A stretch of DNA of 16,538 nucleotides, taken from positions 1-16,538 of the forward strand of contig ACYB01000032.1 of assembly GCA_000175855.1 (NCBI GenBank). The letters run 5' to 3'. The translations under genes and the position numbers were made by a program. Shown here in pieces: positions 1-16,109 of this stretch. Source of the stretch: Raphidiopsis brookii D9. GTDB taxonomy: Bacteria; Cyanobacteriota; Cyanobacteriia; Cyanobacteriales; Nostocaceae. A model generated the notes under the pieces. The model had not been told where the DNA came from. It worked only from the letters and a program-made list of their open reading frames with translations, and made no database searches. Position 1 is the first letter of the stretch. Each line of letters starts with the position of its first letter.

Positions 1-1
1 C

Positions 2-292
2 TGGAAAAAAATGGTTCCCCATAATAAAGGTGGAGAATTTAGAAAATGGTATGGGAATCAACAATATGTTGGTGTAGCATATAAACACACCCGATTTAAA
101 GGACTAGTTTATGAGGGTAGCGATTTAAAAATGGCAGATTTAGAAAAAGCATCTCAGCGGAAAAAATATACCCTCGTTCACACCTCCTTACTTTTAGATG
201 AACACCAGTCAAATTCAAACCTTACTCCAAAATTTATTTCAACAAGATTCCCGTTGGCCTCACACCCAAAGACGAATCATATTTTGGTATGA
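2..292 (+). pseudogene. pglX: BREX PglX methyltransferase, internal/3' remnant entering the window mid-gene; probably truncated
   Basis: Translation from nt 2 reads WKKMVPHNKGGEFRKWYGNQQYV. I recognise the NKGGxFRKWYGN motif from the region just after the methyltransferase core of PglX and type IIG enzymes. Only about 40 codons follow before the pglZ ATG at 198. The frame then runs 95 nt into pglZ, and the other two frames upstream of 198 are full of stops. Confidence 0.5.
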
Positions 293-430
293 CCCAGATG
301 GGCAATTTGTCAGTATTTTTGAGGAATTAGAAATAAATGATGTCAAAAAAATTCAACTGGGTGATACCCCATTTACACTTAAATATCGCCTCCTCATTGA
401 AGAACCTGAGCAAAATTTCTTACTTTATGC

Positions 431-437
431 CCCTTTC
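431..437 (+). other. CCCTTTC heptamer (X XXY YYZ in the upstream pglZ frame) at the position where the pglZ frame changes by -1
   Basis: The upstream-frame codons are gcC CCT TTC. Slipping back one nt gives CCC TTT, then cct caa ccg gaa ccc caa gaa aac tgg. That product, ...LLYAPF-PQPEPQENWLLD, restores the conserved NWLLD segment. The same site also contains C4 and T3 runs, so a simple 1-nt deletion is equally possible. Confidence 0.4.
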
Positions 438-539
438 CTCAACCGGAACCCCAAGAAAACTGGCTCTTAGATATCGAAAAAAGCAGTTTAACCTTCTCCG
501 CTGACCCAGCAGCTCTAATTTATGCTAACCTGGGTCTAC

Positions 540-547
540 GCGATCGC
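540..547. repeat. HIP1 octamer GCGATCGC
   Basis: Exact match, inside pglZ. Confidence 0.9.
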
Positions 548-1312
548 TTTTTAGAAGATACTATTCGCCAACATCTGAAAAAATTCTTTAATTGTAAAAA
601 GCGGATAAGTCATTTACAATCCATGTCTATCTCTCCCGATACGGAAGAAAGAGGACTAATATTGGCCATGCTTTCAGTTTTAGTCAATTTAAAAGTTCCC
701 GATGGTAATCTTTTAATCCGTGAAGTACTACTAAAAGGATTATTAGAGTCTGATAACCCTAGCTGGCACGATATTGTAACATTTGTTTCTGCCAAAGCTT
801 TTTGGGATGTGGTAGAAGAATGCACTGGCTTCTCATCTAACACTCCTAGCCTAACTAAGTTATTTACCCATCTGCTCATTACCCATTTTAGTATATCCTT
901 AAATACCCCATCCTCATTAACCCCAATTAAAGAATCACCATTAACCGAAAAAATAGCAGATAAAATTATCAAACCAGGACAACGAGCCTATTCATTCATA
1001 GACCAGTGGATGCGCGATGATAAACATCGGGAAGGTTGGCAAAAACTCAGTCAAGAAATTAGTGAACAATTACAAATATTTGACCTCATCGAAAATGAAC
1101 CACCGGAGATTCTATACACATCTGCCAGTTTTGAAGTAATAGACCAAGTGTTAATTCGTAGCTGTGTAAAAACCCTCCGCCCTGCTTTTGCACAAATCTC
1201 TCTCCCAGAAACTATACCCCTAGAAGTAAAATCCTGGAAACAATGGTTAAAACATCGTTCCCAGTTGATTTGGTACTCTAAATACAAATATGTTTATCAA
1301 TCTCTAGAAGCA

Positions 1313-1320
1313 GCGATCGC
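1313..1320. repeat. HIP1 octamer GCGATCGC
   Basis: Exact match, inside pglZ. Confidence 0.9.
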
Positions 1321-2838
1321 ACTTTGGGAAATACAACAACAATATCCAAAAGGATTTGACTCAACTACCAAACCTCTATTTCAAGAATACGCGGAGTACT
1401 TATATAAATTCGACCAAGAATATCGCCACTTCGTTTTAGCCAGCACCCAATCTTTCGGGGATATTATTAAACAACTAATGGAAGATATAGACAAATTTTA
1501 TACCCAATGGTTTTTAGAAAATCTCGGTTCATCCTGGTCTAATGTTCTCAGCAAGAATAGCAATTGGGAACTAACTGATATTCCCCCCCAACAGAGATTC
1601 TTTCGTAGATATGTATTGCCCATTCTGCAACGAAATAATAAAGAAAGAGTATTTGTAATTATTTCTGATGCTTTTCGCTATGAAGTAGCCAAAGAACTGG
1701 TAGAAATAATCCAACAAAATTTACTAGGAGAAATCCAAATAGAACCAGTTTTCGGTGTTTTACCCAGTATTACCCGTCTGGGAATGGCAGCCCTTTTACC
1801 GGGATCTAAGTTAGAATTAATACAAAATAGTGAGGATGTCTTAGTAGATAGCATGAGTACGAAAAGCAGTAAGACTAGGGAAAACGTACTAAATCAAAAT
1901 GGGTCCGTGCCAGCAAAAGTCATAGAAGCCAAAGAGCTATTAACAGAGACTACGGAAAAAGCCAAAAAAATAGTGCAACCCAACAGACTAATTTATATAT
2001 ATCACAATGTAATTGATGCCATTGGGGACCAATCATCTAGTGAATCTCATGTTTTTTCGGCTTGTCAAACAGCCATTGAGGAACTGTTAAGACTAGTCAA
2101 AAAGATTTGTAATTCCCTGAATGGAAAAAACGTTATTATCACAGCAGACCATGGATTCTTATATCAAAGACCCGGGCTTGAACCAAGAGATAAACTAAAT
2201 ATACCATGGGAGCAATGTATCTTAGAGAGCAAACGTCGTTATCTACTAACAAGCAAACAAATTAATGATAATACCCTACTCAACTTTAAACTCCCTTATA
2301 TTAAAGAAGAAGTATTTGCAGCAGTTCCGCGAGGGACATTAAGATTTGCAGTGCAGGGAGGAGGATCAAGATTTGTTCATGGAGGAGCTTCCCTGCAGGA
2401 AGTTTGCGTCCCCGTAATCTGTTATCAGCAAAAATCAGTCAAAGGTGACCAAGGACTACCGCGCAAAGTAGAAGTGGAAACAATTAGCACCAACAAAAGA
2501 GTTAGCAATAACCGATTTACGGTCAGAATCCTACAAAATAAGCCAGTACAAGGAAGATGGCGTCCTCGTAAGATTACAGTTGCCATGTATGACATTCAAA
2601 GTAATATTCAAATTACAGATGAGTGCACCACCAACCTGGATAGGACCAGTCAGCATATCAAAGAGCGAGAAATGGAGATAAGATTAATGATAAACACAAG
2701 CGTTCCACCCACGGAAGGCTACTTAATTATCAAAGACCAAGAAGACCAAACTGAACTGGTCAAAGAAAAATGGAGAATCAGTCTCGGAATTGCTAATGAT
2801 TTTGGCGACTTTTAATCAACCTCACCCAGCTCCCCCCC

Positions 2839-4857
2839 ATGCACGACCTCAATCACAAACTTAATACCCATTATCCTGGAAAAGTTGTACGCAAGGATTT
2901 AACTAAGCGCATTAAGGAAGGTGCTAATGTACCCGTTTATGTGTTGGAATATTTATTGGGTATGTACTGTGCTACCGAAGATGAAACCACAATTGAGGAA
3001 GGGCTAGAGCGAGTAAAAAAGATTCTTGCCCAAAACTATGTACGTCCAGATGAAGCAGAACTAGTAAAGTCTAAAATTAGAGAGTTAGGGCGTTTTACAG
3101 TTATAGATCAAGTTAGCGTCACATTAAATGAAAAGAATGATATTTACCAGGGGACATTAACCAATCTAGGGATAAAAAACCTAGTCATAGATCCAGAGAT
3201 TGTCAAAACCAACTCCAAATTATTGGGTAGTGGAATTTGGTGCATTTTGCAACTAGAGTATGAAGCAGGAGCAAAACCGAGTCCTTTTATTGTAGCCAGT
3301 TTAAAACCGGTGCAAATGCCTACCATAGACATGGAGGAACTATTTAATACCCGTTCAGCCTTTACCCGTAGTGAATGGATTGATATTCTAATCAGATCCA
3401 CAGGAATTGAGCCAACTACCCTCAAAGAAGAAGTAAAATGGCACTTACTAGCTAGATTGATACCGTTGTGCGAGAACAACTATAATAGTTGTGAACTAGG
3501 ACCTCGCTCCACAGGTAAATCTCATGTCTATAAAGAAGTTTCCCCCAATTCCATCCTAATTTCCGGAGGTAAAACCACAGTAGCCAACTTGTTTTATAAT
3601 ATGTCCACCCGTCGAATTGGACTAGTGGGTTTATTTGACGTAGTAGCTTTTGATGAAGTTGCGGGAATCAGCTTTCATGATAATGATGGCGTGCAGATCA
3701 TGAAAGATTATATGGCATCTGGCTCTTTCGCACGAGGAAAAGCGGAAATTAGTGCCAATGCTTCTATGGTATTTGTGGGTAACATTGATCATAGTGTAGA
3801 ATCCCTAGTTAAAACATCCCATCTGCTGGCACCTTTTCCTCAAGCGATGATAGACACGGCATTTTTTGACCGATTTCACGCCTATATACCAGGGTGGGAA
3901 GTGCCTAAATTTAGTCCGGAGAACTTTACCAATCAATATGGTTTTATAGTAGATTATTTAGCTGAATGGCTGCGGGAAATGCGTAAACGTAGCTTTGCTG
4001 ATGTCTTAGATAAATACTTTCGTCTTGGTAATAATCTAAAACAAAGGGATGTGCAAGCCGTGCGCAAAACCGTATCAGGGATGCTAAAACTGCTATTTCC
4101 CGATGGCTCATTTAGTAAAGAAGATGTACGAGATGCCCTAATTTACGCACTAAGAGTTAGAAGACGGGTCAAAGAACAGCTGAAAAAAATTGGAGGGATG
4201 GAATTTTATGATGTGCATTTCAGTTATTTTGACCTAGAAACCATGGACGAGCACTTCGTGTCAGTACCAGAACAGGGAGGATCTAGCCTAATCAGTCAAG
4301 ATATTTTATCCCCTGGTCATTTACACTTTATTGGTTCTGGAGAGACTAGTATTATTGGCACCTTCAAACTAGAATTGCAAGTAGTTCCCGGGAACGGAAA
4401 AGCCATGCGCACCGGAATGGCTAATAATGCCAAAATCAGGGACAGTTTTAACATTGCCATGAACTACTTTAAAGCTAACAGTCAAAGAATTAGCGGGAGT
4501 ATTCAACCTGGAAACTGGGATTTTTTAGTACAATTGTTGGATTTACAGGGGACAGGTACTCCTCAAGAAAGCAGTTTAGCATTATTTATTTCTTTATGCT
4601 CTGCTGCACTGAAACGTACTGTGCAAGTACAACTAGTAGTGCTTGGGGATATGACCCTAGGGGGTACAATTAGTCCAGTTAGTAACTTAGCTGGCAGTTT
4701 ACAAGTAGCATTTGATGCTGGTGCCAGACGTATTCTTTTACCAATGAGCAGCGCAGTAGATATAGTCAGTGTTCCCCCGGAATTATTTGCCAAATTTCAA
4801 ACTTCTTTTTACACAGATCCAGTAGATGCGGTGTTTAAAGCCCTTGCCATTACTTAG
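2839..4857 (+). CDS. brxL: BREX Lon-like protease/ATPase BrxL
   Basis: 672 aa. The N-terminus HKLNTHYPGKVVRKDLTKRIKEGANVPVYVLEYLLGMYCA is the BrxL signature. It has Walker A-like GPRSTGKS and Walker B-like VVAFDEVAG motifs, plus a C-terminal Lon-protease-like region. It starts 23 nt after the pglZ stop, as the last gene of the type 1 BREX order. Confidence 0.9.
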   Translation: MHDLNHKLNTHYPGKVVRKDLTKRIKEGANVPVYVLEYLLGMYCATEDETTIEEGLERVKKILAQNYVRPDEAELVKSKIRELGRFTVIDQVSVTLNEKNDIYQGTLTNLGIKNLVIDPEIVKTNSKLLGSGIWCILQLEYEAGAKPSPFIVASLKPVQMPTIDMEELFNTRSAFTRSEWIDILIRSTGIEPTTLKEEVKWHLLARLIPLCENNYNSCELGPRSTGKSHVYKEVSPNSILISGGKTTVANLFYNMSTRRIGLVGLFDVVAFDEVAGISFHDNDGVQIMKDYMASGSFARGKAEISANASMVFVGNIDHSVESLVKTSHLLAPFPQAMIDTAFFDRFHAYIPGWEVPKFSPENFTNQYGFIVDYLAEWLREMRKRSFADVLDKYFRLGNNLKQRDVQAVRKTVSGMLKLLFPDGSFSKEDVRDALIYALRVRRRVKEQLKKIGGMEFYDVHFSYFDLETMDEHFVSVPEQGGSSLISQDILSPGHLHFIGSGETSIIGTFKLELQVVPGNGKAMRTGMANNAKIRDSFNIAMNYFKANSQRISGSIQPGNWDFLVQLLDLQGTGTPQESSLALFISLCSAALKRTVQVQLVVLGDMTLGGTISPVSNLAGSLQVAFDAGARRILLPMSSAVDIVSVPPELFAKFQTSFYTDPVDAVFKALAIT

Positions 4858-5435
4858 ATTACTACCTACTTATTTTATATTACTTGATAACTTTTACTCA
4901 TGCTTGACAGGCCTATAGCCCAATTTTCCGACGTATTTTTATTCTGGCAATTTTGCCTTCGTTATTTACTTTTGGATTGATTACTCTTGTCTTATCAGTT
5001 TAAATTAAATTTAGTCCAGATGTGTTTGTGGCTGTAGAATAAGAAAGACTTCTGAAAGAGCAGGAAAAATAAAGTATAAAACCTTGCTATCACAATTAAA
5101 AGCTAAGGGTACTGATATTAATGCAGTTGAATAAACTGTTACCTGCACTATAAAACCTTAGGAGGGGGGTTTTTAAAAACTGGAGTTTAGACTAAAAAAG
5201 GTGCAACGCCCAATTTTTTGATAACCTTAGAAAATTACCTCCCAGGAAAGCTTTTAGTGACTTCCGTGAAAAAGACTAAAACTCAATCCTGGTAAGGCTG
5301 TCAGCGGTTTTCTTATTGAATCCCAACAGGTCTAATCTAGTGTTATTTGGCTAAAATTTCAGAAAATAGGAGGAATTTGTGAATTAATGGAACCTTCTGA
5401 TCAGGAGAAAGTTTGCCACCAAGCATTTCTGACAG

Positions 5436-5443
5436 GCGATCGC
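5436..5443. repeat. HIP1 octamer GCGATCGC
   Basis: Exact match, in the convergent intergenic gap. Confidence 0.9.
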
Positions 5444-5500
5444 TATTATAAACAAAGCGGGTGTATTTTAGTATCTCAACAGTGTATCTATTAAATACCA

Positions 5501-5935
5501 TCAATCCTGATGAGATACAAAAGCATTTATTTTGTAGTCATTAAGCATCTCATTTAAGAGTTGATGCACTTTGTACATAACACTTACCTCTTCTAAGGAC
5601 TTAAATGATTGATCAGAAACAAAATTTAAGCAATCTAAAACTTTAGTTTTCCAACTATCTTTATCTGTCGTGTCCCACGCTTCGAAGACGTCTGTTTCTT
5701 TCAAACCAAGTAATTTATGAAATAATTCATTTCTTTTATCTCGTACTTTTTTACCTGTTTCTCCCACAAATATACTCATAATATTACCTTCGACTTCACA
5801 TTCTGGTTTTGCCTCTTTTAACAAGTTAAAAGGGAATGTTTCGTTGTTTTTTTTGTTAACTTGGCAGAACTTCTTTAATAGTTTGCTCCTTAACTTTGGG
5901 CCAGCCCTTTTCTGGGTAGTCAATATACGTTTCAT
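5501..5935 (-). CDS. C-terminal half of a HEPN domain (Rx4H motif); probably the 3' part of the frameshifted CARF-HEPN gene
   Basis: RNELFH (Rx4H, nt 5717-5734) sits at the start of a predicted helix, as in Csm6/Csx1 HEPN RNases. This frame is open upstream to 5959 and overlaps the 380-aa ORF by 80 nt in the +1 frame. There is no convincing independent start or RBS. Confidence 0.6.
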   Translation of the reverse strand: MKRILTTQKRAGPKLRSKLLKKFCQVNKKNNETFPFNLLKEAKPECEVEGNIMSIFVGETGKKVRDKRNELFHKLLGLKETDVFEAWDTTDKDSWKTKVLDCLNFVSDQSFKSLEEVSVMYKVHQLLNEMLNDYKINAFVSHQD

Positions 5936-6998
5936 ACTTTTCTTTAGCCCACATACGAATTAGACCTTCTACTGCTCTGAAACTGTGAAACATTGCTTCC
6001 ACCGTGTTTCCCTGTTCTATTCTAATTACAGCCAAATAGGCAGCTTCATATCCAAGCTGCCACCAATCATTTGAACGTTCTTTTGCTACATCGCTTAGGT
6101 TTGTTAATTTATACAAATCTAAATCCTCTAGAAATTTATCAAATTTAGCGCAATTCCACTGAGTAGCTATCTCCAGTAGCTTCAGTAATTCTTCGAGGTT
6201 TTCTCCTTGTGGGTTAGAAACTTTTAGATCATGCAATAAACTGTTCAATCCTGAATAGTCAAAACGTTGGAGTAATCTTTTTGCCTCTTGTAGTTGAATA
6301 CCTCGTAAATAATTGGAGCTGCTAATAAATATTGTATTTTCTGGTTCATATTCATTTGAAACCAGAAACTTCACTTTCTTACCAAATTTAGCTAAGGTCA
6401 CAAATTGAATTGCAGATGAAATTGCCGGGATACCCGCTTGATGGCTAACGTATACATTATCTATATCATCCAGGGAGTTAAACTCCAACTCTAATAGCTT
6501 TGTTTGAACTAAACTCAATGATTGATCCCAATTATCTAAACTTTGAGTTTTTGATTCTGGCTGAAGCTCTACATATTCTAACTCTCTCACATCGGGAAAC
6601 TTACTTTTTAAATACTTGTCGAGTATTGGTTTCAAGGTACAAGTATCTTTCCAGTATGGACTTCTTTCATTTATATTATAACCTTTATAAGCAAACTTCT
6701 GATCTGTTAAAATGACAATAATTCTGTGAGGTAATTTTTCATCTTGTAGTTTCTCCGAGAAAATTTTTAACATGGGAAAATGTAAGCCCTGATAGTTCTC
6801 ATCGTTTAATTGATTACCAATAACTATGCCCATCACTCTTGCAGGAACTGTAAAAAGATCCTCACCCTCCAGTTTTTTGGGTTCAAATAAGATGTCTGTT
6901 TCTAAATCAATTCCTGAGCCTAGCAAGTATTTATTCCATTGGTCTATATTCCCTAGCTTAATGTCGCTGTTGCCAATAGTTACAATCCAGATATTCAT
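5856..6998 (-). CDS. CARF-like Rossmann sensor domain plus N-terminal helices of a HEPN domain (Csx1/Csm6-like ancillary effector, 5' part)
   Basis: The N-terminus MNIWIVTIGNSD (a beta-strand followed by small polar residues) and the later VSHQAGIPAISSAIQF loop resemble CARF ligand-pocket motifs. The C-terminal third is helical (EAAYLAVIRIEQGNTVEAMFHSFRAVEGLIRMWA), like the first HEPN helices. It is the last gene of the Cmr operon, and an AGGTG RBS lies upstream of the ATG. Confidence 0.55.
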   Translation of the reverse strand: MNIWIVTIGNSDIKLGNIDQWNKYLLGSGIDLETDILFEPKKLEGEDLFTVPARVMGIVIGNQLNDENYQGLHFPMLKIFSEKLQDEKLPHRIIVILTDQKFAYKGYNINERSPYWKDTCTLKPILDKYLKSKFPDVRELEYVELQPESKTQSLDNWDQSLSLVQTKLLELEFNSLDDIDNVYVSHQAGIPAISSAIQFVTLAKFGKKVKFLVSNEYEPENTIFISSSNYLRGIQLQEAKRLLQRFDYSGLNSLLHDLKVSNPQGENLEELLKLLEIATQWNCAKFDKFLEDLDLYKLTNLSDVAKERSNDWWQLGYEAAYLAVIRIEQGNTVEAMFHSFRAVEGLIRMWAKEKYETYIDYPEKGWPKVKEQTIKEVLPS

Positions 6999-7134
6999 GA
7001 TTTACACCTAAGTTTTTGTTACCTCTAAAGTATAACTGAGAAAATACAGTTTTGCTCAAAAATTATTGGTTTTTGATTTTTTAAACCTCACTCTTCAAGA
7101 TTGGTCAATTTGGTACAAAACCAAAAGTACTTAA

Positions 7135-8916
7135 TTATGGATTATTTCCCCAAAGTCTTTCAAAGTTTCCTTTACCCTGTAAGGTTTTATCTTCTAAAAA
7201 CTTCAAAAATTTTTCTGTTGTGCAATCCGGATTATTTGAAAGATAAACAGTTAGTAGTTCTACATATTTTTTACTCTTGGCATCAGTTTTGTCAATCATC
7301 TCCTTTTGATTGATAACTTCGTAAAGAGGATACATTCTATGCCAAATTCTACCAACCTTGCTAGGATTTTGGGCATTACCAACATATCCAGTCAACTTGG
7401 TTCTTTTAATAAAGTTATCTTTATGGAACCATGGAAGAGCCATACTATCGTTTTTACTATTTGCAACTCTACCCCAAACCTGGACCTTATCAGGATGCCA
7501 AATTTCTCGCCAACTTTCTGTATAAGTATCTGTAGATGGAAGGTTGAAGCAATCTCGTACTTTGTCGGAAATACCGGATAAGAAATCCTTAATATTGGTC
7601 AATTCACCTCCGGGAGCTGTAATACAATATTCTGCTGATTCATTAGGATTACTGAATGACCAATGACAACCAATCATTGGTTTCTTTGTATTATGAAAGT
7701 ATGATGGATAAAATAGATCATGATCGACTCTACGCCACGATCTACCAAAACCGCCCAGCAGTAAAGAAAATTTAACTAAAAGAATTAAAAATTCTCTTTC
7801 TTTTTCATCTCTTTGCCCTTGACGGTACTGTTCAAAAATATTTATTTTACCCGAATTTAATTTATATTTATGTTTTTTTATAAATTCAAGTTGTTCCCTT
7901 TCAAAATTAACACTAAATCTCCCGACAATTGAACCTTGTTCTGTTTGATTTTGTATGAATCCACCCCATAGTTTATTCGTTAATTCTCTGGTCTTTTCTT
8001 CATTTGTTACCCCTGCTAATAAGCGTAAAGTATGTCCCCTCAAAGCAGCTTTAAACATATTAGGACGGAATTCTTTTGATCCATCTAATAAAGTAGAACT
8101 TATTCCTTGTCCATCAAGTTTTACTGAAATAACTGGTGCTATAGATAGGTTCTGAGTAGCTGCATCTTTAGACTTACTAAAATATCCATAGCCTGCACTA
8201 GTTCTTGAGCCAATTCCCTGGGATAATGCTTGTTCCCAAATTTTTTCTACCAGATCCCAGTCTATATTGACATGAGTGCTATTTTTAATTGCAGAAATAC
8301 CAAATCTAAAGATAGTTTTGTACAGCGATATTTGTACATTTGCACTGCTCCTAGAATCTCGTTCAACCTGACGTTCCTGTTGAGAATGAACAATATCAAG
8401 TAACCTTTCGCGGTTTGCCCAGGACATATCTATAGGATAACCACCATGAAAACGTAAAATACCCGGTTTAGTCCTTTTGTATTTTTTTCCATCAATGATT
8501 TCTTCTACTTCTCCACCACAATAATCCTGGACCTTATCAGAAGCAATTTGTTGACAGGCACGTAAAAATGCACCTTTCATGCTGCTACCCGGGTAGTGGG
8601 GTATACCTTTGGCACCAATGACAGGTCGAATTATCCCTTCATCTTGTCCGGAATTTGTTACAAAACGCCAATTTTGAGTATATTCCCAAGTATGTACATC
8701 AGGACCAAATTGAGGTATTTTTATTTCAGATTGAGGTTTTTTTCGCTTCCATAATGGAACACCCTCATCTGGTGGTTGGGGAATAGGAGGGCATCCTTCT
8801 AGCCATTCTTCCAACCATTTTGATGCGGTTTGTGATTTTTTCCCAACATATTGAATCTTTCCCCTCTTTTCAATTTGGCTTTGATACATTAAAGGTACTA
8901 AATTACTATCACTCAT
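7135..8916 (-). CDS. cmr6: Double-RAMP protein: Cmr6-like N-terminal half fused to Cmr1-like C-terminal half
   Basis: First half: NWRFVTNSGQDEGIIRPVIGAKGIPHYPGSSMKGAFLRAC, GILRFHGGYP and the G-rich loop GIGSRTSAGYGYF, which are Cmr6 hallmarks. Second half: FRPNMFKAALRGHTLRLLAG, KLWGG and the loop LLLGGFGRSWRR, which are Cmr1-like. At 593 aa it is roughly two RAMP proteins long. An AAGGAAAGGA RBS precedes the ATG. Confidence 0.75.
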   Translation of the reverse strand: MSDSNLVPLMYQSQIEKRGKIQYVGKKSQTASKWLEEWLEGCPPIPQPPDEGVPLWKRKKPQSEIKIPQFGPDVHTWEYTQNWRFVTNSGQDEGIIRPVIGAKGIPHYPGSSMKGAFLRACQQIASDKVQDYCGGEVEEIIDGKKYKRTKPGILRFHGGYPIDMSWANRERLLDIVHSQQERQVERDSRSSANVQISLYKTIFRFGISAIKNSTHVNIDWDLVEKIWEQALSQGIGSRTSAGYGYFSKSKDAATQNLSIAPVISVKLDGQGISSTLLDGSKEFRPNMFKAALRGHTLRLLAGVTNEEKTRELTNKLWGGFIQNQTEQGSIVGRFSVNFEREQLEFIKKHKYKLNSGKINIFEQYRQGQRDEKEREFLILLVKFSLLLGGFGRSWRRVDHDLFYPSYFHNTKKPMIGCHWSFSNPNESAEYCITAPGGELTNIKDFLSGISDKVRDCFNLPSTDTYTESWREIWHPDKVQVWGRVANSKNDSMALPWFHKDNFIKRTKLTGYVGNAQNPSKVGRIWHRMYPLYEVINQKEMIDKTDAKSKKYVELLTVYLSNNPDCTTEKFLKFLEDKTLQGKGNFERLWGNNP

Positions 8917-8998
8917 TTTTGGTTTATCCTTTCCTTAATGTTATGAATTTTTTTACTGCGATATGGGCTATCTTCTCTACAAGAAATGATAAATATCT

Positions 8999-9385
8999 CT
9001 ACTCATCGCCGTTTCTTGAATCACCTCGGGTAGGTTTATATCTTTGAGTCCACCACACCATGCAATCACACAGTTGTGTTAGTATCACTAGTGTAACCTT
9101 GCGATATTCCAAAGGAAATATTGCTGAATCCCACAGCCCTTCAGGAGTATCAGGAACAGTAATATCAGCTTGCTGCATAATTTCGACTAGTTCATTCCAG
9201 GTAGCCCGCCAGTACTTAGATTTTTCACCTTCTAAACGTAGCTGTTCCCCCCAGAATCTCTCCAATCCATAGGGAACAGTAGCACGCATTTTATGAACCT
9301 GGTTAACTGTTTCTCTGTCTTCATTTCGGTACTCACAAACCAGACTGTGAGCAATTTTATCTAAACTCAAATCTTTCCAAGTCAT
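8999..9385 (-). CDS. cmr5: Putative small subunit (Cmr5/Cas11-like), assigned by position and size
   Basis: 128 aa, predicted all-helical, lying between cmr4 and cmr6 where cmr5 sits in cmr2-3-4-5-6 operons. An AAGGA RBS is present. I recognise no diagnostic sequence motif. Confidence 0.45.
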   Translation of the reverse strand: MTWKDLSLDKIAHSLVCEYRNEDRETVNQVHKMRATVPYGLERFWGEQLRLEGEKSKYWRATWNELVEIMQQADITVPDTPEGLWDSAIFPLEYRKVTLVILTQLCDCMVWWTQRYKPTRGDSRNGDE

Positions 9386-9409
9386 ATTTCTATCCTTAAC
9401 AATAACTAA

Positions 9410-10315
9410 TTAATCTTCCCGAACATTTGTATTAAACAATGTCATTTGACATTGTCCAAATCCCACCGATTCTAGCCCCCCTAGGTAAACATTACTGACC
9501 ACTTTTTTGTCATTATTTCCATCATGTTTAGCCTTACTATCTTGAGGTTTATGATTCTGAACTTCCTTTTTACCAAAGGGTTCCCACTGTTTATTATCCC
9601 TATTTTTTTTCAATCCAATGGGAAAAGCTAAAATTGTTTCTTCTGGTAATGCTTCAACTCCGAAAAAAGCTTTGTCTGCATTGCGCTTTTGATTTTTCTC
9701 CAGGGCAACACGACTTTGACGATACAAGGCCATGTCGTGAATCATGGATATTTCATCATCACCGACTATGACTGCTGGTAATTCTTCACCGTCGGGGAAC
9801 CAATCCGATGAAATAGTACCATTGGCAATAGTCAAAAACCCAAAGTTGAAGAATAATTTTTGATTTGGCAAAGGAGTAAGTGATTCCGATTTCACGTATG
9901 TACGAGGTAATATCAAATCATTTAATCCAGCTATTCTTTGATAACGTTTAAGCAAGCGTTTACAACTTACCCAGATAATTGGTTGTCCCGGGCAAAACAC
10001 GGGTAACCACACAATAGAAGCGTATTCAAACTTTACCCGGGACTCTGTTGTTCGGTTAGAAACAGTACCGTTACTTAATTTTTGTTCGTCATCATCCGTT
10101 ACGTCACTACCATACCATATTCTGACTTCTTCTTCCCCTTGATAATATCGCATTTCTGCTCGCAATCTACCACGAATTGAGCTACCGGGAATAATACCAG
10201 TTCGGGTAAATTGATCTCGAAAAATTAGGTTCATGTTTCCCGTTTCTTCTCCTGCTGTCGCTCCCACGTGAAGTGGTGCTAAAGTTTTGATAATCCCGTA
10301 AGCTTGGTGATACAT
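9410..10315 (-). CDS. cmr4: Cmr4 (Cas7-family RAMP backbone subunit)
   Basis: IKTLAPLHVGATAGEETGNMNLIFRDQFTRTGIIPGSSIRGRLRAEM aligns with the Cmr4 N-terminal motif (TLTPxHxGxG...PIxRE...IPGSSxKGxLR). The C-terminal loop is LGGLESVGFGQC. An AGGAGG RBS lies 8 nt upstream of the ATG. Confidence 0.85.
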   Translation of the reverse strand: MYHQAYGIIKTLAPLHVGATAGEETGNMNLIFRDQFTRTGIIPGSSIRGRLRAEMRYYQGEEEVRIWYGSDVTDDDEQKLSNGTVSNRTTESRVKFEYASIVWLPVFCPGQPIIWVSCKRLLKRYQRIAGLNDLILPRTYVKSESLTPLPNQKLFFNFGFLTIANGTISSDWFPDGEELPAVIVGDDEISMIHDMALYRQSRVALEKNQKRNADKAFFGVEALPEETILAFPIGLKKNRDNKQWEPFGKKEVQNHKPQDSKAKHDGNNDKKVVSNVYLGGLESVGFGQCQMTLFNTNVRED

Positions 10316-10390
10316 AAAGTTATTCCTCCTGATTTATTATACTCTAACCTTAGAAATGCTCGAGACGATTTTCATGAGAATTAAGGGTGG

Positions 10391-11458
10391 TTACTGATCA
10401 ATACCAATAATGTTTAGAGGTAAACATAAACCACATCCCAATTGTTTTAGAGAAAAGCCCTCATTAGGAAACCATTCGTCGGGAAATCCTGAATCATTTT
10501 CGTCTCCCCACCATGATTTATTTAATGGTTTATCAAAGACGTAAACAGTCCCTGCGGGAACCGCGTAACGCCCTCTTCCTAACCTTCCTTTTCCTTTGGT
10601 ATCTCCCAAACGGTAACGATAGGGAGAAGGCCTATCAGTAAGAATATGACTCGGTTTGGGAAATGTTGTGTGTTCTGGATTTGGATAACGGTGAGAAAAC
10701 CGAGTTGAACCCCACACTCCTGGAGTAATCAAAGCGCAACTGCGTTCAATTTTTTTCCTTAATATTTTTAATATTTTGCTATTGCTTGAAATTTCTTGCG
10801 AAGTGATTTCTACAAGATGGCTTTCACCACCAAAACAATACCATCCTTTAGGTATCTCATGGGTTGATAAATAAACTAAACAGGTTTCATCTTTCTGATC
10901 ATCTCTTGGATAATATCCCATTTGTACGGCATTTTCAAGAAATAATCCCCCTTCTTCTTCAACACATCTTTCATTTTTAACTAGCTTGGGATGCAGTATA
11001 GATATATATTTCCATGGATCATTTGTACCTTTTCCCAAATCTTTTCCCAAAATATGCTTAGCAGGAAAATCCCAATAATTAATACTGTGCCACCTACAAT
11101 CAGGGTCTAAGGAGTTCTCTTTGCGATACCATTTGTCGTTCCTAATTTCCCATTCATCTGATTGCCCACTCTCAAGATTGATAATTTTTGTCCAAGGAAT
11201 AGGAACATAAAAATATTCTAGAGCATTTAGTTTTGCCCAAAAAGGCCCAGCAACGTGTAATTTTTTTAGTTCTTGATGATCGATAAACGGTTCGGATTGA
11301 TTGGCCGCAAAAAACAAACCAGATAATGTACAAGCATCTGGTGGGAATTTGGACCCAGATCTTCCCACTAGATTTTCTGGTGACAAAAATGCCCCAGTGC
11401 TGCCATATAAAAACCCTAAAGGATTAATCACAATTAGATATTTGTACATAGTTGCCAC
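10391..11458 (-). CDS. cmr3: Cmr3 (Cas5-family RAMP)
   Basis: The N-terminus INPLGFLYGSTGAFLSP...SKFPPDACTLSGLFFAA matches the Cmr3 pattern (P.DPLFFRDGRPF...FPPsPsTlaGalR). Glycine-rich C-terminal loops are present (GKGRLGRGRYAVPAGTVYVF, GCGLCLP). It overlaps the cas10 stop by 25 nt, which suggests translational coupling. Confidence 0.8.
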   Translation of the reverse strand: MATMYKYLIVINPLGFLYGSTGAFLSPENLVGRSGSKFPPDACTLSGLFFAANQSEPFIDHQELKKLHVAGPFWAKLNALEYFYVPIPWTKIINLESGQSDEWEIRNDKWYRKENSLDPDCRWHSINYWDFPAKHILGKDLGKGTNDPWKYISILHPKLVKNERCVEEEGGLFLENAVQMGYYPRDDQKDETCLVYLSTHEIPKGWYCFGGESHLVEITSQEISSNSKILKILRKKIERSCALITPGVWGSTRFSHRYPNPEHTTFPKPSHILTDRPSPYRYRLGDTKGKGRLGRGRYAVPAGTVYVFDKPLNKSWWGDENDSGFPDEWFPNEGFSLKQLGCGLCLPLNIIGIDQ

Positions 11459-13035
11459 CCCACGTTAATCAAATCAATAATCCAACTTGTCATAGCGTCA
11501 GCATTAGTTTTACCAGTAATTGCCTTTTCATTATTTACTAAATCCTGTTTGGTGTTAAAATAAATATCAAATAGGGTCAATGCCATAATCCATCCTGAAC
11601 TACTTTGTTTAGACAAATTAATTGCATTACGAAATCTGAGTTGCATTAAATCGTTATAAACATGGTTCCAATTAGGTTCAAACTTAGAATCTCGACCGTT
11701 GCACTCCCATTCTGCATAGGTTTTGCCGTCACGGTCTCGATATTTCTTCAGAACATATAAGTAGTCCCAAGGACAAGTCCACTGTACATACTGCCCACTA
11801 TTAAATAAAACTCGAATAGCTACACGATTACGCCCACTGGATTTTGCTAATTTCTGTGCTTCCCTACAATGCTGTAGCACATCTCGTTGGGGTACACTAC
11901 CTGCGACCCATACAAATCCAACACTCAAAGTAATGGGTTGTTTGTGTTCTTGCCATCTATGATTGAGAGTCATCAACCACTCGTAAGTTGCAAGGGGTGA
12001 AATAGGTTCATGAGGATTATTACTATAAATCACCCCCAAAAAATCATCCCCACCTGCATAAACTATCCTTCCATTAATTCCCGGAATACCTTTCTGAAAA
12101 TGACTAGAGAAATTTTCTCCCCATTTTTGCATTTCTGTACTAAAGTTTTTTAAGCCCACATCACCTTCATTTACCGCAATTTTTTGTAGGTGATCACCCA
12201 CTTTATCCCCATCTCCCATAAACCAACCTGTCCACTGTCCAGGGTTACCAGTTTGTGGATCTGGCTTGCGCTGAATTTCTTGAAATCCCTCGGGTAGAGG
12301 AAACAGTTGAAAACGTTTTCCCACATCGGGGTAAGTTACTAAACGTTTAGTCAATTCAGGAATACTCAATTTCTCTCTAGGGTCAATAAATTTACCCTCG
12401 ACTTCCTCTTGTTTGGTATTTTCAGTTATTTTTGCCAGTTCTGTGTAAAAACGTTCAATCTCTTCCTTCTCTTTTCTGTAGTCAATGTTTGCCGGATTAC
12501 GTTTATTCCCCCCCAATCCAGGAAATGCAATTCCATCAGCACCAGTGAGACTCGAACTTTCCCCAATCCAGTTAATTCCTATCCAGTCGCGAGCTAACTT
12601 ATTGGTTTCTAGTTCTCGCATAACAGAAGTGGGGGAGTCTCCCTGGGACCAAAATATCTCCCAACTGTGATTAGCCCAGTTATTCCACTCACGCTCCCAA
12701 TGGTAGGGACCCAAATGTCTTAAATTTTCACTAAGCCATTTCTCACAGTGGTAGATGACCTCTTTCCAACTTGATAAGAATACTTCTCTTGCTTGGTTCT
12801 CAGGAAAGTTACCCTTAATAAGAATGCGGTTAGGTGTTCCCTGTTTAATATTATGGGTACCGGGGGAAATTACATCCAGCTCCATTTCACAAACAGCATC
12901 GATTATTTTTTTACTCATGTAGGAAAGCAGCACTGAAGCACCATATAGGTCTCGCAGCTTACGAGATTTTTCTATAAATCCTTGTACTGGTGCAAAGGTA
13001 ACAGCAGTATATACACATTTGGGTTGATCAGCCAT
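11434..13035 (-). CDS. cas10: Minimal Cas10/Cmr2 (two Palm domains, GGDD cyclase motif, no HD domain)
   Basis: VYTAVTFAPVQGFIEKSRKLRDLYGASVLLSYM is the Cas10/Cmr2 Palm1 signature and starts at residue 8. WFMGDGDKVGDHL (GDGD at nt 12205-12216) and RIVYAGGDDFLGV (GGDD at nt 12043-12054) form the Palm2 cyclase site. ITLSVGFVW...AKSSGRNRVAIRV is typical of the Palm2 end. No H-D motif region and no CxxC pairs are present. Confidence 0.85.
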   Translation of the reverse strand: MADQPKCVYTAVTFAPVQGFIEKSRKLRDLYGASVLLSYMSKKIIDAVCEMELDVISPGTHNIKQGTPNRILIKGNFPENQAREVFLSSWKEVIYHCEKWLSENLRHLGPYHWEREWNNWANHSWEIFWSQGDSPTSVMRELETNKLARDWIGINWIGESSSLTGADGIAFPGLGGNKRNPANIDYRKEKEEIERFYTELAKITENTKQEEVEGKFIDPREKLSIPELTKRLVTYPDVGKRFQLFPLPEGFQEIQRKPDPQTGNPGQWTGWFMGDGDKVGDHLQKIAVNEGDVGLKNFSTEMQKWGENFSSHFQKGIPGINGRIVYAGGDDFLGVIYSNNPHEPISPLATYEWLMTLNHRWQEHKQPITLSVGFVWVAGSVPQRDVLQHCREAQKLAKSSGRNRVAIRVLFNSGQYVQWTCPWDYLYVLKKYRDRDGKTYAEWECNGRDSKFEPNWNHVYNDLMQLRFRNAINLSKQSSSGWIMALTLFDIYFNTKQDLVNNEKAITGKTNADAMTSWIIDLINVGWQLCTNI

Positions 13036-13158
13036 ACTATTATTTCAAGAGTAACTACGGTTTTGCAATTTAAAAAACTACTATTCCAGCAGATGTAAAA
13101 ACCATGTTTCCGACACGTTAAAGTCTGGGACAATTTCATAAAAATCATCTTGACCTAA

Positions 13159-13776
13159 TCATATCAATTTAATGCTAGGAAAGATTATTTCATCAACAAC
13201 AATAGCAATACCTTCATCTTCCTCCTTTTTTCGTTGCATTTTTACCCTCAGTTCAAGATCTTTAACTTCCTGAGAATACTCATATTTTTTGCGATGTATT
13301 AAGTAAGCGTAAAAGCTATCAGTCCTTACTTTCTCCCCCTGTTCTTCAAGTAAAGAGACAATGTTTGGTTTTAGTTCCTCCATTTCTTTTTCAAGTTCTT
13401 TTTGAATCGTCCTAATCTCTAGATAGCGGTTGAAGTAACTACTTTTTTCATACCCCAAATCCACCAAAGGGATGTGGTGTCCCTGTTCTTTATTCAAAGG
13501 AGGTTGATAATGCTTGATTGCTTCTTCCTCCCATTCTTCTAAGTCTTGCCTATCTTCCCACAGGAAATATCTCAGACCATGGCATTTTGCTTCAAGAAAT
13601 AGGTTTTTTTTCTCGTGAGCTAAATGTCTTTGTTTTAAATTGTCCGCAATTCCACAGTACCATACCCGTGATGCACCGTCAGTAACAAAATAGATACCTG
13701 GATGTTCCGGTAGGGAATTAAAAGCGACAAAGGGCGTATAGGCAAGTTTTTTAATTTGTGTTAATTTTTCTAGCAT
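13159..13776 (-). CDS. GIY-YIG nuclease domain protein with C-terminal coiled-coil region
   Basis: HPGIYFVTDGASRVWYCGIADNLKQRHLAH (GIY ... YCG ... R; nt 13651-13698) followed by LEEWEEEAIKHYQPPLN (catalytic Glu and P..N) gives the full GIY-YIG motif set in residues 25-95. Residues 110-195 are rich in E, K and L heptad-like sequence. Confidence 0.8.
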   Translation of the reverse strand: MLEKLTQIKKLAYTPFVAFNSLPEHPGIYFVTDGASRVWYCGIADNLKQRHLAHEKKNLFLEAKCHGLRYFLWEDRQDLEEWEEEAIKHYQPPLNKEQGHHIPLVDLGYEKSSYFNRYLEIRTIQKELEKEMEELKPNIVSLLEEQGEKVRTDSFYAYLIHRKKYEYSQEVKDLELRVKMQRKKEEDEGIAIVVDEIIFPSIKLI

Positions 13777-13941
13777 GTTGTTATGTTACCGGTGATTTGA
13801 TGTCGTAGTGGTTTCCTAGTTTTCATGTTTTATCAGTAAAAATACGGCTAAACTTAGATTAAAATAAATCCCGTTTGATAAGTCCAGGGGTTTACTTAAG
13901 TATTCAGGTGTTACCTACAATAAGTAATTACATTATTTTTA

Positions 13942-13965
13942 AACATCTATCCTAGGATAGATATT
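13942..13965. promoter_or_regulatory. Palindromic motif copy 1: AACATCTATCC-TA-GGATAGATATT (perfect 18-bp palindrome at 13945-13962)
   Basis: Seen directly in the sequence. It lies 166 nt upstream of the GIY-YIG ATG on the minus strand and 144 nt downstream of the DUF262-DUF1524 stop. On the plus strand it is preceded by AATTAC (13926-13931) at a 10-nt spacing, exactly as in copy 2. Confidence 0.6.
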
Positions 13966-14048
13966 TTTAGGAAATTATGTAGTATTTGCTCGGAAGATAT
14001 AGGGCCAATAAGCGGGGTGGGAATTCTCTTCCTTACCTTTACTGTCAA

Positions 14049-14068
14049 AGGTTCGGTTTACCGAACCT
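14049..14068 (-). terminator. Candidate intrinsic terminator hairpin downstream of the DUF262-DUF1524 gene
   Basis: Perfect 8-bp stem AGGTTCGG/CCGAACCT with a 4-nt loop, 41 nt after the minus-strand stop codon. On the minus strand only TTTG follows, so the U-tract is weak. Confidence 0.35.
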
Positions 14069-14108
14069 CTCAATCAGTGCTTGGCTCCGATTTGCACACA
14101 GATGTACT

Positions 14109-16109
14109 TTATCTAGAATCTTGAGTTTCAATTCTCCATTCATCATCTGATAACCCTGCGGTTTCTATGGCCTTCATATAGAAGTTATAGATCACTTGTG
14201 ATGATAGGTTAACTTCAATAAAAGCTCCATTACGCAGGGTCCGTGTTTCGCGAAAGTTTTTTCTATCCCAACTTATAAAGCGGGTAAATTTCTGGACTAT
14301 ATCATTGAAGGAATTTGGTTCCAAATCAGCAATTTCATTCAAAGTTGTTTCTAAAACATCTCGCCAACTTTTAACAGGATATTGTTTCCCAGAACAAAAA
14401 ACAGCCTTTGGCTTTGGAGTAGTCCCTTTTAACTTAGTAGGGGGGGAAGATTGGGCCGATTCATCACCAAAATAACCCCAAATTTGTAAGGCAATATCAG
14501 CAAGATAGTCGGCTCTTTTTTTAATATCTTCCTCACGCCATTCCTCTCGAGATTGAAAATACTTGTTTAACTCCAAATTACTATTTCTAAAAGTCTGTTT
14601 TTTCTGTTTAAAAGAATCGTTAGAAAGTTCCCCGTTATATGCAGTAAGTGTTAAGTTTCCCAGGGTATGAACCAGAAGTTCATGGGCTTTTTCCCATTCC
14701 TCTCCCAAGTCTTTTTTCCAGGAATCACTGAGATTTTGTGGCATAATATGCTCAATCGAAACATTTTCAAACCTAACCTGTTCTTTATGTCCAAAATATT
14801 CCTCGATGGATTCAAGAATAATCTTGCATTTTTCTGATCGTTTTTCACCGTATAGTTTTACGTCAATCAATCTTGCTTTGAACTCTGCATCTTTAGGATA
14901 GTCTTGATTTTGAAGTGTTAACTTTAGCCTGTCGACAAAATTATCAGAGCCAAGAGCTGTTGCTTTGCTGACTTTTGAATGTAGTAAAGCAAATATTCTG
15001 TTTAGTCCTCTTGTTTGGATATTACAAACAAAACGACGAAGAATGAAGTTCTCGATCACTTTAAGAACAGATATAAATTCCTCTTCTGTCAGTCTTTGGT
15101 TCACACAATCATCATAACAATTTAAGAGAAATGGATAAACAGTTACAACATCTAAACGATTTAACCTACAAAGATATTTACGAATCATATCCTTGGGTTC
15201 TCGTTCTGGGTTTGAAAGTCTTGAATAATATTCCGAAAAAATGTGCAAATGTTTCAGATAAGAACGTGCATCACTTTCATTAATTCTATCTTTGATCTCA
15301 AAATAAATCTCACTTTTCTTAACATCAGAACCACTTTTAGTTAGGTAGTGGCGAATAAACTCCGTTAAATTATCACCTAGCAAATCCTGCATAGGTTGCC
15401 AATATTCAGCATGTATAGGTTCTTGATCTTCCCCAGGAATACGCATGAATAAATAATTTCGGATTAAATCCGCTTGAGTTAAAGGTCTTCCTTTAGCATT
15501 AAGACTTTCAAAAACTAAATAAGGATCATCATCAGCATTCAGAACAACACTCACCACGGAAAAACTACCACCAATAACTTCCTTTATTTTTTGCAGTTCC
15601 GATGATGATGAGATTTTTTTAATCTTCTTTTTAAAAAAGTCATAGCATTCCGAAATTCCACTTTTATTGACGCTGGAATCTGAATTGATTATTTGATGAA
15701 ACACTATACGGTCAACTTGTGTGGGTTGCAACTTATAGTAATCTGAACCATTTTTCTTTTTAAAAGGATTAACCAAAATAGTATCATTGATCTCTTTTGC
15801 CAATTCCTCCTCTGAATGTTTTACAGTATCTCTGAGTGCAGATAGCAGTATAAAAATCGTAGTCAGTCTTTGTTGTCCGTCAATTAGTAGATACTTGCTT
15901 ACTTGTTCTGGGGATGATGTAGTAGGCATAGTTACAATTGAACCCATAAAGTGGGGACGAGGTTTATCTACTTCACATAGACACAAAATATCATTCCATA
16001 ATGTCTTCCACTCAGGTACTTTCCAGCTATATGGTCTTTGAAAGAGAGGAACAATATATTGTCTTGTCCCCTCAAGAATTTGCTGTAGTTTGGTTTCTGA
16101 TGCTTGCAT
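14109..16109 (-). CDS. DUF262-DUF1524 protein (GmrSD/BrxU-like type IV, modification-dependent restriction enzyme family) with extra C-terminal domain
   Basis: N-terminus QYIVPLFQRPYSWKVPEWKTLWNDI and LLIDGQQRLTT (DGQQR at nt 15867-15881) are the DUF262/ParB-like NTPase motifs. SIEHIMPQ...HTLGNLTLTAYNGELSNDSFKQK is the DUF1524 His-Me finger nuclease. About 120 additional C-terminal residues are of unknown type. An AAGGGA RBS precedes the ATG. Confidence 0.85.
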   Translation of the reverse strand: MQASETKLQQILEGTRQYIVPLFQRPYSWKVPEWKTLWNDILCLCEVDKPRPHFMGSIVTMPTTSSPEQVSKYLLIDGQQRLTTIFILLSALRDTVKHSEEELAKEINDTILVNPFKKKNGSDYYKLQPTQVDRIVFHQIINSDSSVNKSGISECYDFFKKKIKKISSSSELQKIKEVIGGSFSVVSVVLNADDDPYLVFESLNAKGRPLTQADLIRNYLFMRIPGEDQEPIHAEYWQPMQDLLGDNLTEFIRHYLTKSGSDVKKSEIYFEIKDRINESDARSYLKHLHIFSEYYSRLSNPEREPKDMIRKYLCRLNRLDVVTVYPFLLNCYDDCVNQRLTEEEFISVLKVIENFILRRFVCNIQTRGLNRIFALLHSKVSKATALGSDNFVDRLKLTLQNQDYPKDAEFKARLIDVKLYGEKRSEKCKIILESIEEYFGHKEQVRFENVSIEHIMPQNLSDSWKKDLGEEWEKAHELLVHTLGNLTLTAYNGELSNDSFKQKKQTFRNSNLELNKYFQSREEWREEDIKKRADYLADIALQIWGYFGDESAQSSPPTKLKGTTPKPKAVFCSGKQYPVKSWRDVLETTLNEIADLEPNSFNDIVQKFTRFISWDRKNFRETRTLRNGAFIEVNLSSQVIYNFYMKAIETAGLSDDEWRIETQDSR

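Follow-up and report, generated by a model that had tools for sequence, protein, structure and literature searches.

A Cas6-less III-Bv interference module among the defence genes of Raphidiopsis brookii D9, with a CRISPR array just beyond the contig boundary in sister strains

The III-Bv variant of type III CRISPR systems is defined by a fused Cmr1-Cmr6 protein, a lack of Cas6 and the maturation of its crRNAs by RNase E with 13-14 nt handles (PMC6546367; PMC12464536). Its example is CRISPR3 of the Synechocystis sp. PCC 6803 plasmid pSYSA (Behler et al. 2018, as presented in PMC12464536 and PMC6546367), and processing by RNase E has been demonstrated in Synechocystis only (PMC12464536). CRISPR arrays are absent from most III-B loci, which nonetheless use crRNAs (PMC12669027), and the sharing of arrays is a known III-B mode, e.g., in Marinomonas mediterranea, where the III-B system uses I-F arrays (PMC7145637). 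Type III operons may end in RNases of the Csx1/Csm6 type (e.g., SyCsx1 and SisCsx1; PMC9676260), which combine a CARF domain with a HEPN domain displaying an Rx4H motif. The bloom-forming cyanobacterium Cylindrospermopsis raciborskii carries other CRISPR-Cas genes (PMC3922686); a literature search for CRISPR in strain D9 returned nothing.

We analysed a window of 16,538 nt that is a complete contig from the draft genome of Raphidiopsis brookii D9, and its two ends are thus assembly breaks. On its minus strand, between 5501 and 13035, lies the tight six-gene type III operon announced by an earlier note on this DNA, with the order cas10, cmr3, cmr4, cmr5, cmr6-cmr1 and csx1, set between other defence genes. 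The features are:

1-71 and 66-178, plus strand: two pglX fragments, part of the BREX remnant half (1-4857)
198-2815, plus strand: pglZ (BREX), with a frameshift at a C-run at position 434
2839-4857, plus strand: brxL (BREX), closing the remnant half
4858-5500: spacer between brxL and csx1, array-free, with a fragment resembling a Uma2 endonuclease gene at 5043-5196
5501-5935, minus strand: csx1 3′ ORF in the +1 frame, with the HEPN motif RNELFH
5856-6998, minus strand: csx1 5′ ORF (CARF and the start of HEPN), 380 aa, ending at a premature TAA
5857: single-base insertion that splits csx1 (GTTAAC versus GTAAC)
7135-8916, minus strand: cmr6-cmr1 fusion, 593 aa, a single ORF of 1,782 nt; PADLOC PDLC01212, E 5e-184, full length
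8999-9385, minus strand: cmr5 (Cas11 small subunit), 128 aa; PADLOC Cmr5 PDLC01476, E 2e-46
9410-10315, minus strand: cmr4 (Cas7 backbone), 301 aa; TIGR02580 2e-19, Pfam RAMPs 5e-17, PADLOC Cmr4 1e-23
10391-11458, minus strand: cmr3 (Cas5-type subunit), 355 aa, GTG start; PADLOC Cmr3 PDLC01640 E 4e-14, PDLC01361 5e-12
11434-13035, minus strand: cas10/cmr2, 533 aa; PADLOC Cas10b PDLC02051, E 3e-224, full length
13039-13068, minus strand: promoter-like site (TTGCAA, 18 nt, TG-AATAAT) immediately 5′ of the cas10 start
13159-13776, minus strand: weak GIY-YIG-like gene, in the flank 13159-16109
14109-16109, minus strand: GmrSD-type gene, in the same flank

Each of the six operon proteins has a match among Cas profiles, with E values from 1e-111 to 1e-224 for three of them, and the profile searches and fold comparisons bear out the gene calls of the earlier note together with its cmr6-cmr1 fusion. 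The candidate that it had offered for the small subunit is Cmr5 by the PADLOC profile, with no match to this protein in Pfam or NCBIfam. Its description of the neighbours as other defence genes likewise holds, since they are PglZ and BrxL of BREX, a GmrSD-type enzyme and a weak GIY-YIG-like protein. The cmr3 gene is called at 352-356 aa in sister strains, and its DNA is the same as in CENA302. The promoter-like site upstream of cas10 is a consensus match only, such sites being no more numerous than in shuffles.

The Cas10 protein (EFA73053.1 of R. brookii D9) has Pfam matches to Cmr2_N and Cas10-Cmr2_palm2 and retains the GGDD cyclase motif at residues 328-331. It begins directly with Cmr2_N at residue 8 and features no HD dipeptide anywhere; the HD domain is absent. 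In the fusion protein, the N-terminal half is Cmr6-like, as the profile matches Cmr6 (3x1l_H) at 5e-4. A model of the whole fusion (pLDDT 65) matches Cmr6 in Foldseek, but the matching half was not resolvable there, and the C-terminal half (about residues 256-593) was therefore modelled separately. This model (pLDDT 79, pTM 0.85) displays a predicted Cmr1 fold, with Foldseek matches to 9l7c_A (2.7e-6) and to Cmr1 4l6u_B (9.8e-5). Taken by sequence and by predicted fold, the fusion is Cmr6 followed by Cmr1.

These features place the locus in the III-Bv family. Like Synechocystis CRISPR3, the D9 module has the order cas10-cmr3-cmr4-cmr5-fused cmr6/cmr1, a Cas10 without an HD domain and no cas6; against the plasmid locus of Synechocystis sp. 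B12 (PCC 6803 lies outside the collections searched), the fusion, homologous along its entire length, has 38% identity over 83% in tblastn, and Cmr4 has 49%. The two differ in their accessory genes, csx1 standing at the operon end in D9 and most relatives, and in the lack of neighbouring cas1/cas2 in D9. Compared with the canonical III-B systems of Pyrococcus furiosus, Archaeoglobus fulgidus and Sulfolobus islandicus, the D9 module shares the six roles, the folds, the profiles and the GGDD motif. It differs from them in that their Cas10 carries an N-terminal HD nuclease domain, their Cmr4 has a catalytic Asp (D26 of P. furiosus) where D9 has Asn, their cmr1 and cmr6 are separate genes rather than one polypeptide, and crRNA maturation of the D9 type would not proceed via Cas6. 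The earlier note had seen a divergent variant in the reduced Cas10, the fused cap subunits and the atypical Cmr4; these traits are real, but they are family-wide III-Bv traits (PMC6546367) and not peculiar to this locus.

A contig scan of species representatives recovered 359 relatives, all cyanobacterial and none above 58% identity, and a plasmid collection contributed distant relatives only. Among the relatives, 118 of 118 retain GGDD and 48 of 48 retain the HEPN RxxxxH motif. The Cmr4, Cas10 and Csx1 motifs of D9 are identical to those of array-associated relatives, with no lineage-specific change in the proteins.

Within the window itself, we confirm that there is no repeat-spacer structure by TRF, direct repeats, family-repeat patterns, nhmmer and Rfam: an nhmmer profile of 60 family repeats reached a best E of 0.63 and Rfam gave nothing. 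A candidate remnant repeat, GAATTAATGGAACC at 5381-5394, matches the repeat 3′ end at 13/14 positions, which is chance level (0.4 expected; 14/200 shuffles as good). Nor does the window hold a candidate ORF for cas6 or cas1/cas2, every ORF of at least 120 aa being assigned. The further claim that no array lies in reach is not borne out once the contig boundary is considered. In six of six sister strains, i.e., Cylindrospermopsis raciborskii strains with the same DNA at 98-99.7% identity, AbiEi and an AbiEii fragment lie past window position 1 and are followed by a CRISPR array of the GTTTCCATTAATTCCACTTCCTAGATGAAAGCGGAC class, which starts 1,259 nt outside the window and about 6.6 kb from the csx1 stop. 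The apparent lack of an array thus probably stems from an assembly boundary, as the D9 draft contig stops about 1.3 kb before the array site of the sister strains. As a practical caution, claims of this kind require contig context. On the right-hand side, the sister strains continue with the core-genome genes petD and petB and show no array. The one near-identical contig found in a metagenome scan extends just 96 nt beyond the window end.

The sister-strain array is set apart from the operon by brxL, pglZ and AbiEi and is transcribed in the opposite direction. In four strains it comprises 32-40 perfect repeats, whereas the other two strains have 3 repeats each. Its spacers are strain-specific, with just the 2-3 nearest AbiE held in common, which indicates ongoing spacer acquisition. 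No cas6 or cas1/cas2 was found adjoining it, and the genes called over about 10 kb to each side in the sister strains include no Cas6 Pfam family. The repeat, GTCCGCUUUCAUCUAGGAAGUGGAAUUAAUGGAAAC (GTCCGC...GGAATTAATGGAAAC), folds into a hairpin at positions 2-24 followed by a 12-nt single-stranded A/U-rich 3′ tail (z = -3.5). The Synechocystis plasmid locus bears an adjacent array of the CCCTACCGAT class (CCCTACCGAT...TTGGAAAC) as against GTCCGC...GGAATTAATGGAAAC across two BREX genes and AbiEi, 6.6 kb away, in the sister strains; the repeats are alike in their 5′ hairpin and their single-stranded 3′ tail ending in GGAAAC. The presence of the array in D9 itself is probable from the identical flanks and the identical AbiEi protein (EFA71859.1), and, as two sister strains show, it could be short there. 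Across the strains of the species, the operon is present, deleted or recombined, and a growing array is wedged into a BREX operon.

The earlier note had offered two readings, a cas6-less III-Bv module served by an array outside the window and a CRISPR-independent type III derivative working without crRNA. In favour of the latter is solely that the 16.5-kb window, the ends of which are contig breaks, contains no array, cas6 or cas1/cas2. Against it stand the array in all six sister strains, the arrays within window-equivalent reach in 47 of the 52 relatives with comparable flanks (about 90%), the array-less relatives being scattered on the tree and forming no clade of their own, the motifs shared with array-associated relatives, the use of crRNAs by III-B loci, most of which have no array of their own (PMC12669027), and the several arrays reported for C. 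raciborskii genomes. We regard CRISPR independence as close to refuted and give it next to no credence. It is less far-fetched, though still rather unlikely, that the nearby array belongs to another system (e.g., a Cas6-containing I-D or III-D) and that the III-Bv module shares its crRNAs or uses a distant array. Spacers are still gained here without adjoining cas1/cas2 or cas6, which implies servicing in trans; the operons of the nearest relatives adjoin two other repeat classes; C. raciborskii genomes have been reported with 7-9 CRISPR arrays and separate cas1/cas2 loci; and one strain has a gene of the CARF family located 10 kb further along. However, in all strains examined no effector other than the III-Bv operon lies within 10 kb of the array, and the same repeat class adjoins cmr6-cmr1-type operons in 28 other cyanobacterial loci. 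Elsewhere, III-Bv operons have an array of this class and no other beside them, and next to the Anabaenopsis operon the single array carries the closest repeat (89% identical). As array sharing is known for III-B (PMC7145637), such a case would alter the source of the crRNAs and not the mechanism.

It is also conceivable, but quite improbable, that the D9 module is a decaying remnant with a real csx1 frameshift, an HD-less Cas10, an Asp-less Cmr4 and no working output, heading for loss like BREX. The csx1 5′ ORF matches PADLOC CARF1--CARF_HEPN PDLC01795 at E 2e-111 over profile positions 1-335 of 449 and the 3′ ORF at E 2e-25 over positions 325-448, and the 1-nt insertion between them, which is a genuine mutation or else an error of 454 sequencing, sits outside any long homopolymer. 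Decay would also be in keeping with the frameshift of pglZ, the deletion of the whole operon in one strain, which keeps 70 nt of cas10, the absence of the operon from the GTDB species representative and the arrays of only 3 repeats in two strains. Yet the D9 assembly was built from 454 GS20 reads (PMC2821919), and each of the four indels relative to CENA302 is a homopolymer shortened by 1 nt in D9, which makes single-base frameshifts in this contig suspect. Two csx1 alleles occur in the species, with only about 70% identity over their 3′ halves; in four sister strains the D9 allele (98.9% identity) is present as an intact 499-aa csx1, and the gene is intact in every sister strain compared. The five effector genes are intact in D9, and the fusion gene has a pN/pS of 0.43 versus a sister strain; dN/dS between D9 and CENA302 is underpowered, with just 0-3 differences in four genes.

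We consider it probable that the D9 locus is a III-Bv interference module of the Synechocystis CRISPR3 family, with its crRNAs most likely coming from an array of the sister-strain type, as family membership and the sister-strain array support; in favour of this reading, too, the strain that lost the operon has an array of just 3 repeats. What the earlier note had named as evidence against novelty was found for the most part: an array immediately outside the window in the sister strains and the placement of all subunits in the III-Bv clade, but no adjoining cas6 or cas1-cas2. The D9 operon resembles the array-less III-B modules in having no adjacent array or adaptation genes, with guides and spacer acquisition presumably provided in trans; it differs from them in that an array sits in the same island of the sister strains, an adjacent array being usual in III-Bv (47/52).

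Under the III-Bv reading, host RNases, which in Synechocystis are RNase E and RNase J, would cut the CRISPR transcript into crRNA in place of Cas6, and RNase E-type processing would be expected to leave the 13-14 nt handle AAUUAAUGGAAAC. The most likely source of crRNA is the array of 3-40 repeats that lies 1.26 kb past the left window end in sister strains, while further crRNAs may stem from arrays of the same repeat class elsewhere in the genome and cas1/cas2 at other loci would supply new spacers in trans. Cmr3, several copies of Cmr4, Cmr5, the Cmr6-Cmr1 fusion and Cas10 would assemble on the crRNA, whose pairing with an invader transcript is predicted to switch on the GGDD cyclase of Cas10; the resulting cyclic oligoadenylate (cOA) would activate the CARF-HEPN RNase Csx1. 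The set for such signalling is present, with GGDD and a Csx1 that has the CARF domain, the Rx4H HEPN motif and the operon-end position of the Csx1/Csm6 RNases, but, unlike them, is split by the 1-nt insertion in D9, leaving the effector gene frameshifted.

The module, part of a Raphidiopsis brookii D9/Cylindrospermopsis raciborskii defence island, thus adds one more member to III-Bv, and new biology need not be invoked to explain why it seems to lack an array. In both single-sequence and profile alignments with the solved chains 9arw, 4rdp, 4wnz and 4w8w, Asn29 of its Cmr4 aligns with the catalytic Asp D26 of P. furiosus Cmr4, and Asn occupies this column in 114 of 114 relatives; a literature search for Cmr4 Asn in III-Bv found nothing. 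Because this Asn is universal among these Cmr4 proteins and Cas10 lacks the HD domain while GGDD and the HEPN motif are strictly kept, we tentatively put forward, as a possibility read from sequence and somewhat less than an even bet, that the III-Bv family, including the D9 module and Synechocystis CRISPR3, may consist of naturally slicer-deficient type III complexes. If so, immunity would run solely via cOA signalling, and cutting of the target RNA could not end the signal. Should the Asn abolish target cleavage, III-Bv would offer a natural setting in which to test how type III signalling is brought to an end.

Six genes lie close together on the minus strand at 5501-13035, and profile and fold matches of the encoded subunits bear out the Cmr operon, including a cmr6-cmr1 fusion, that the earlier note had read from the sequence. 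On one side they are flanked by the BREX genes pglZ and brxL and on the other by a GIY-YIG-like gene and a GmrSD-type gene (EFA73055.1).

13159-13776: GIY-YIG-like gene (label tentative; weak Pfam GIY-YIG match, E 0.0036, under the gathering score)
11434-13035, minus strand: Cas10 (EFA73053.1; PADLOC Cas10b, full length, E 3e-224; Pfam Cmr2_N and Cas10-Cmr2_palm2)
10391-11458, minus strand: Cmr3 (profile match, 4e-14)
9410-10315, minus strand: Cmr4 (TIGR02580, 2e-19)
8999-9385, minus strand: Cmr5 (profile match, 2e-46)
7135-8916, minus strand: 593-aa RAMP protein, the Cmr6-Cmr1 fusion (full-length profile match, 5e-184)
5856-6998 and 5501-5935, minus strand: Csx1 (CARF-HEPN) as two overlapping ORFs (one 449-position model, matched at 1-335 and 325-448, respectively)
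5198-6249: two-allele csx1 region (10964-11841 in compared locus L087 and 12373-13872 in L141)

The 593-aa RAMP protein joins Cmr6 and Cmr1 in one chain: its N-terminal half resembles solved structures of Cmr6 in both profile (3x1l_H, 5e-4) and fold comparisons, and residues 256-593, modeled on their own (pLDDT 79, pTM 0.85), match Archaeoglobus fulgidus Cmr1 (4l6u_B, 9.8e-5; 9l7c_A, 2.7e-6). The 359 relatives of this fusion in species-representative genomes are all cyanobacterial, with further ones in plasmids and metagenomes, and they include a Synechocystis plasmid locus as well as the TIOX110 plasmid, Leptolyngbya boryana and Trichormus loci, in which the operon leads into an intact csx1, arrays and cas1/cas2. 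The subtype III-Bv, typified by Synechocystis CRISPR3, is defined by "an unusual fusion of Cmr1-Cmr6" and the lack of Cas6, its repeat being cut by RNase E to leave 13-14 nt handles, with assistance from RNase J (PMC6546367, PMC12464536). Given this definition, the traits that had been taken to mark a divergent variant are instead hallmarks of an already described one, and they occur family-wide: GGDD is retained in 118/118 Cas10 relatives and the HEPN motif in 48/48 Csx1 relatives, and the Cmr4 motif HVGATAGEExGNLNLIFRDQ is almost invariant. Of the other defense neighbors proposed earlier, the BREX and GmrSD-type genes stand, whereas the GIY-YIG label does not go beyond its weak match, and this gene matches none of the PADLOC models.

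No CRISPR array was recovered in the window by Tandem Repeats Finder, direct-repeat search, pattern searches with the repeats of relatives or Rfam, and a profile of 60 family repeats gave a best nhmmer E of 0.63 there, as against 47 hits in the positive control; the earlier statement that the window lacks an array is thus upheld. At 5381-5394, 13 of 14 nt agree with the 3′ end of the repeat, a match rejected as being at chance level. The broader claim that no array lies in reach is not borne out, because the window is an entire contig of the Raphidiopsis brookii D9 draft genome, assembled from 454 GS20 reads (PMC2821919), and an array is found 1,259 nt past position 1 in the sister strains, from which we infer its presence in D9. 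The window is 99.2-99.7% identical to a 100-kb contig of Cylindrospermopsis raciborskii CENA302, except over 5198-6249. Past the GmrSD end, the sister strains show a repeat-rich gene and then the core-genome genes petD and petB, with no array found on that side. Past position 1 there follow AbiEi, a 97-aa AbiEii fragment and the array, whose 36-nt repeat (GTTTCCATTAATTCCACTTCCTAGATGAAAGCGGAC) occurs in 40, 37, 36 and 32 perfect copies in four strains and in three copies in two. Strains have in common only those two or three spacers that lie closest to AbiE, a pattern that puts the leader at the opposite (pglX) end and indicates continuing acquisition. Beyond the array lie ~2.2 kb of tandem elements, followed by pglX, an RNase T2 gene, brxC and brxB; this gene order means that the array and AbiE are wedged into the BREX operon, which is broken between pglX and pglZ by a ~6.4 kb insert of ~240-nt tandem elements, array, AbiEii fragment and AbiEi (compared locus L143, 9779-20624). 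Window positions 1-178 comprise two duplicated pglX pieces (1-71, 96%, an internal piece; 66-178, 92%, the 3′ end), as if left by rearrangement. Several of the ~240-nt elements lie between the presumed leader end and pglX (L143, 14304-15394), each with the same 42-aa ORF (MTHNIGNVFAKHSLCELALLPPSK...). NPIK01000002.1 (L145, 20249-20624) has rearranged DNA past its array of three repeats, and a Cas_APE2256 gene of the CARF family begins ~10 kb from AbiEi, which hints at another CRISPR-associated locus nearby.

The module likely uses this array, to judge from repeat and gene context. In crRNA sense the repeat (GTCCGCTTTCATCTAGGAAGTGGAATTAATGGAAAC) folds into a hairpin (positions 2-24) that is followed by 12 nt of single-stranded, A/U-rich tail, as has been described for the CRISPR3 repeat. 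Its class, which combines a hairpin with GGAATTAATGGAAAC, adjoins III-Bv operons in 28 of the loci surveyed. The sole array beside the Anabaenopsis elenkinii operon, likewise in opposite orientation, has the closest repeat (89% identical). In none of the sister strains does an effector other than the III-Bv operon lie within 10 kb of the array. Against such use, the operons of the nearest relatives adjoin two other repeat classes, no cas1 or cas2 was found near the array, and other CRISPR-Cas genes are present in the species. Across III-B as a whole, most loci are without arrays according to the 2025 classification (PMC12669027). In each relative locus fetched, we mapped the operon together with every array, and among the 52 with flanks at least as long as those of the window, 47 have an array within the equivalent reach, the remainder being Iningainema, a Coleofasciculaceae MAG, a Dolichospermum MAG, Xenococcus and one with an array at 4.3 kb. 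On the fusion-protein tree, the array-less loci are scattered among array-bearing neighbors, and hence the lack of an adjacent array is sporadic rather than lineage-defining. With the array past position 1 in the sister strains, this leaves the CRISPR-independent reading unsupported; the cas6-less III-Bv option of the earlier note is supported by the fusion, the family-wide hallmarks and that same array, and the locus is a known kind of system.

Within the species, the locus has undergone turnover. In C. raciborskii NPIL01000001.1 (L146, 4834-4865), a clean 8.05-kb deletion corresponding to window 4917-12965 removes the whole cmr-csx1 operon, leaving the first 70 nt of cas10 and an array of only 3 repeats at the conserved site. 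There are two alleles of csx1, which share only ~70% identity over the 3′ half of the gene and the adjoining downstream DNA. Between D9 and CENA302, by comparison, cas10 to cmr5 show 0-3 nt differences, with 2.5% divergence in the fusion gene; the operon is a recombination mosaic. One inserted base at 5857 (GTTAAC vs GTAAC), which may be a real mutation or a 454 error, splits csx1; in the four strains used for comparison, which have this allele at 98.9% identity, the gene is intact at 499 aa. All four indels relative to CENA302 (17, 434, 5070, 16132) are 1-nt homopolymer contractions in the window, that at 434 (C4 vs C5) frameshifting pglZ, a pattern that fits 454 GS20 error rather than biology. 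In the brxL-csx1 spacer, 154 nt (5043-5196) are probably a gene fragment; they share 88.5% identity with a portion of a Uma2-family endonuclease gene from a plasmid of Cylindrospermopsis curvispora.

A motif check finds GGDD at residues 328-331 of Cas10 and no HD domain. In single-sequence and profile alignments with four solved Cmr4 chains, Cmr4 Asn29, set in GNLNLIFRDQ, aligns with the catalytic Asp (D26 of Pyrococcus furiosus), and Asn occupies this column in 114/114 relatives, including the Synechocystis locus. A recent structural study describes the catalytic aspartate as essential "across all type III systems" (PMC11026444), and we found no literature noting its substitution in III-Bv. 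Together, Asn29 and the HD-less Cas10 suggest a complex whose sole output would be cOA, that is, one predicted to signal but that may not cut its target.
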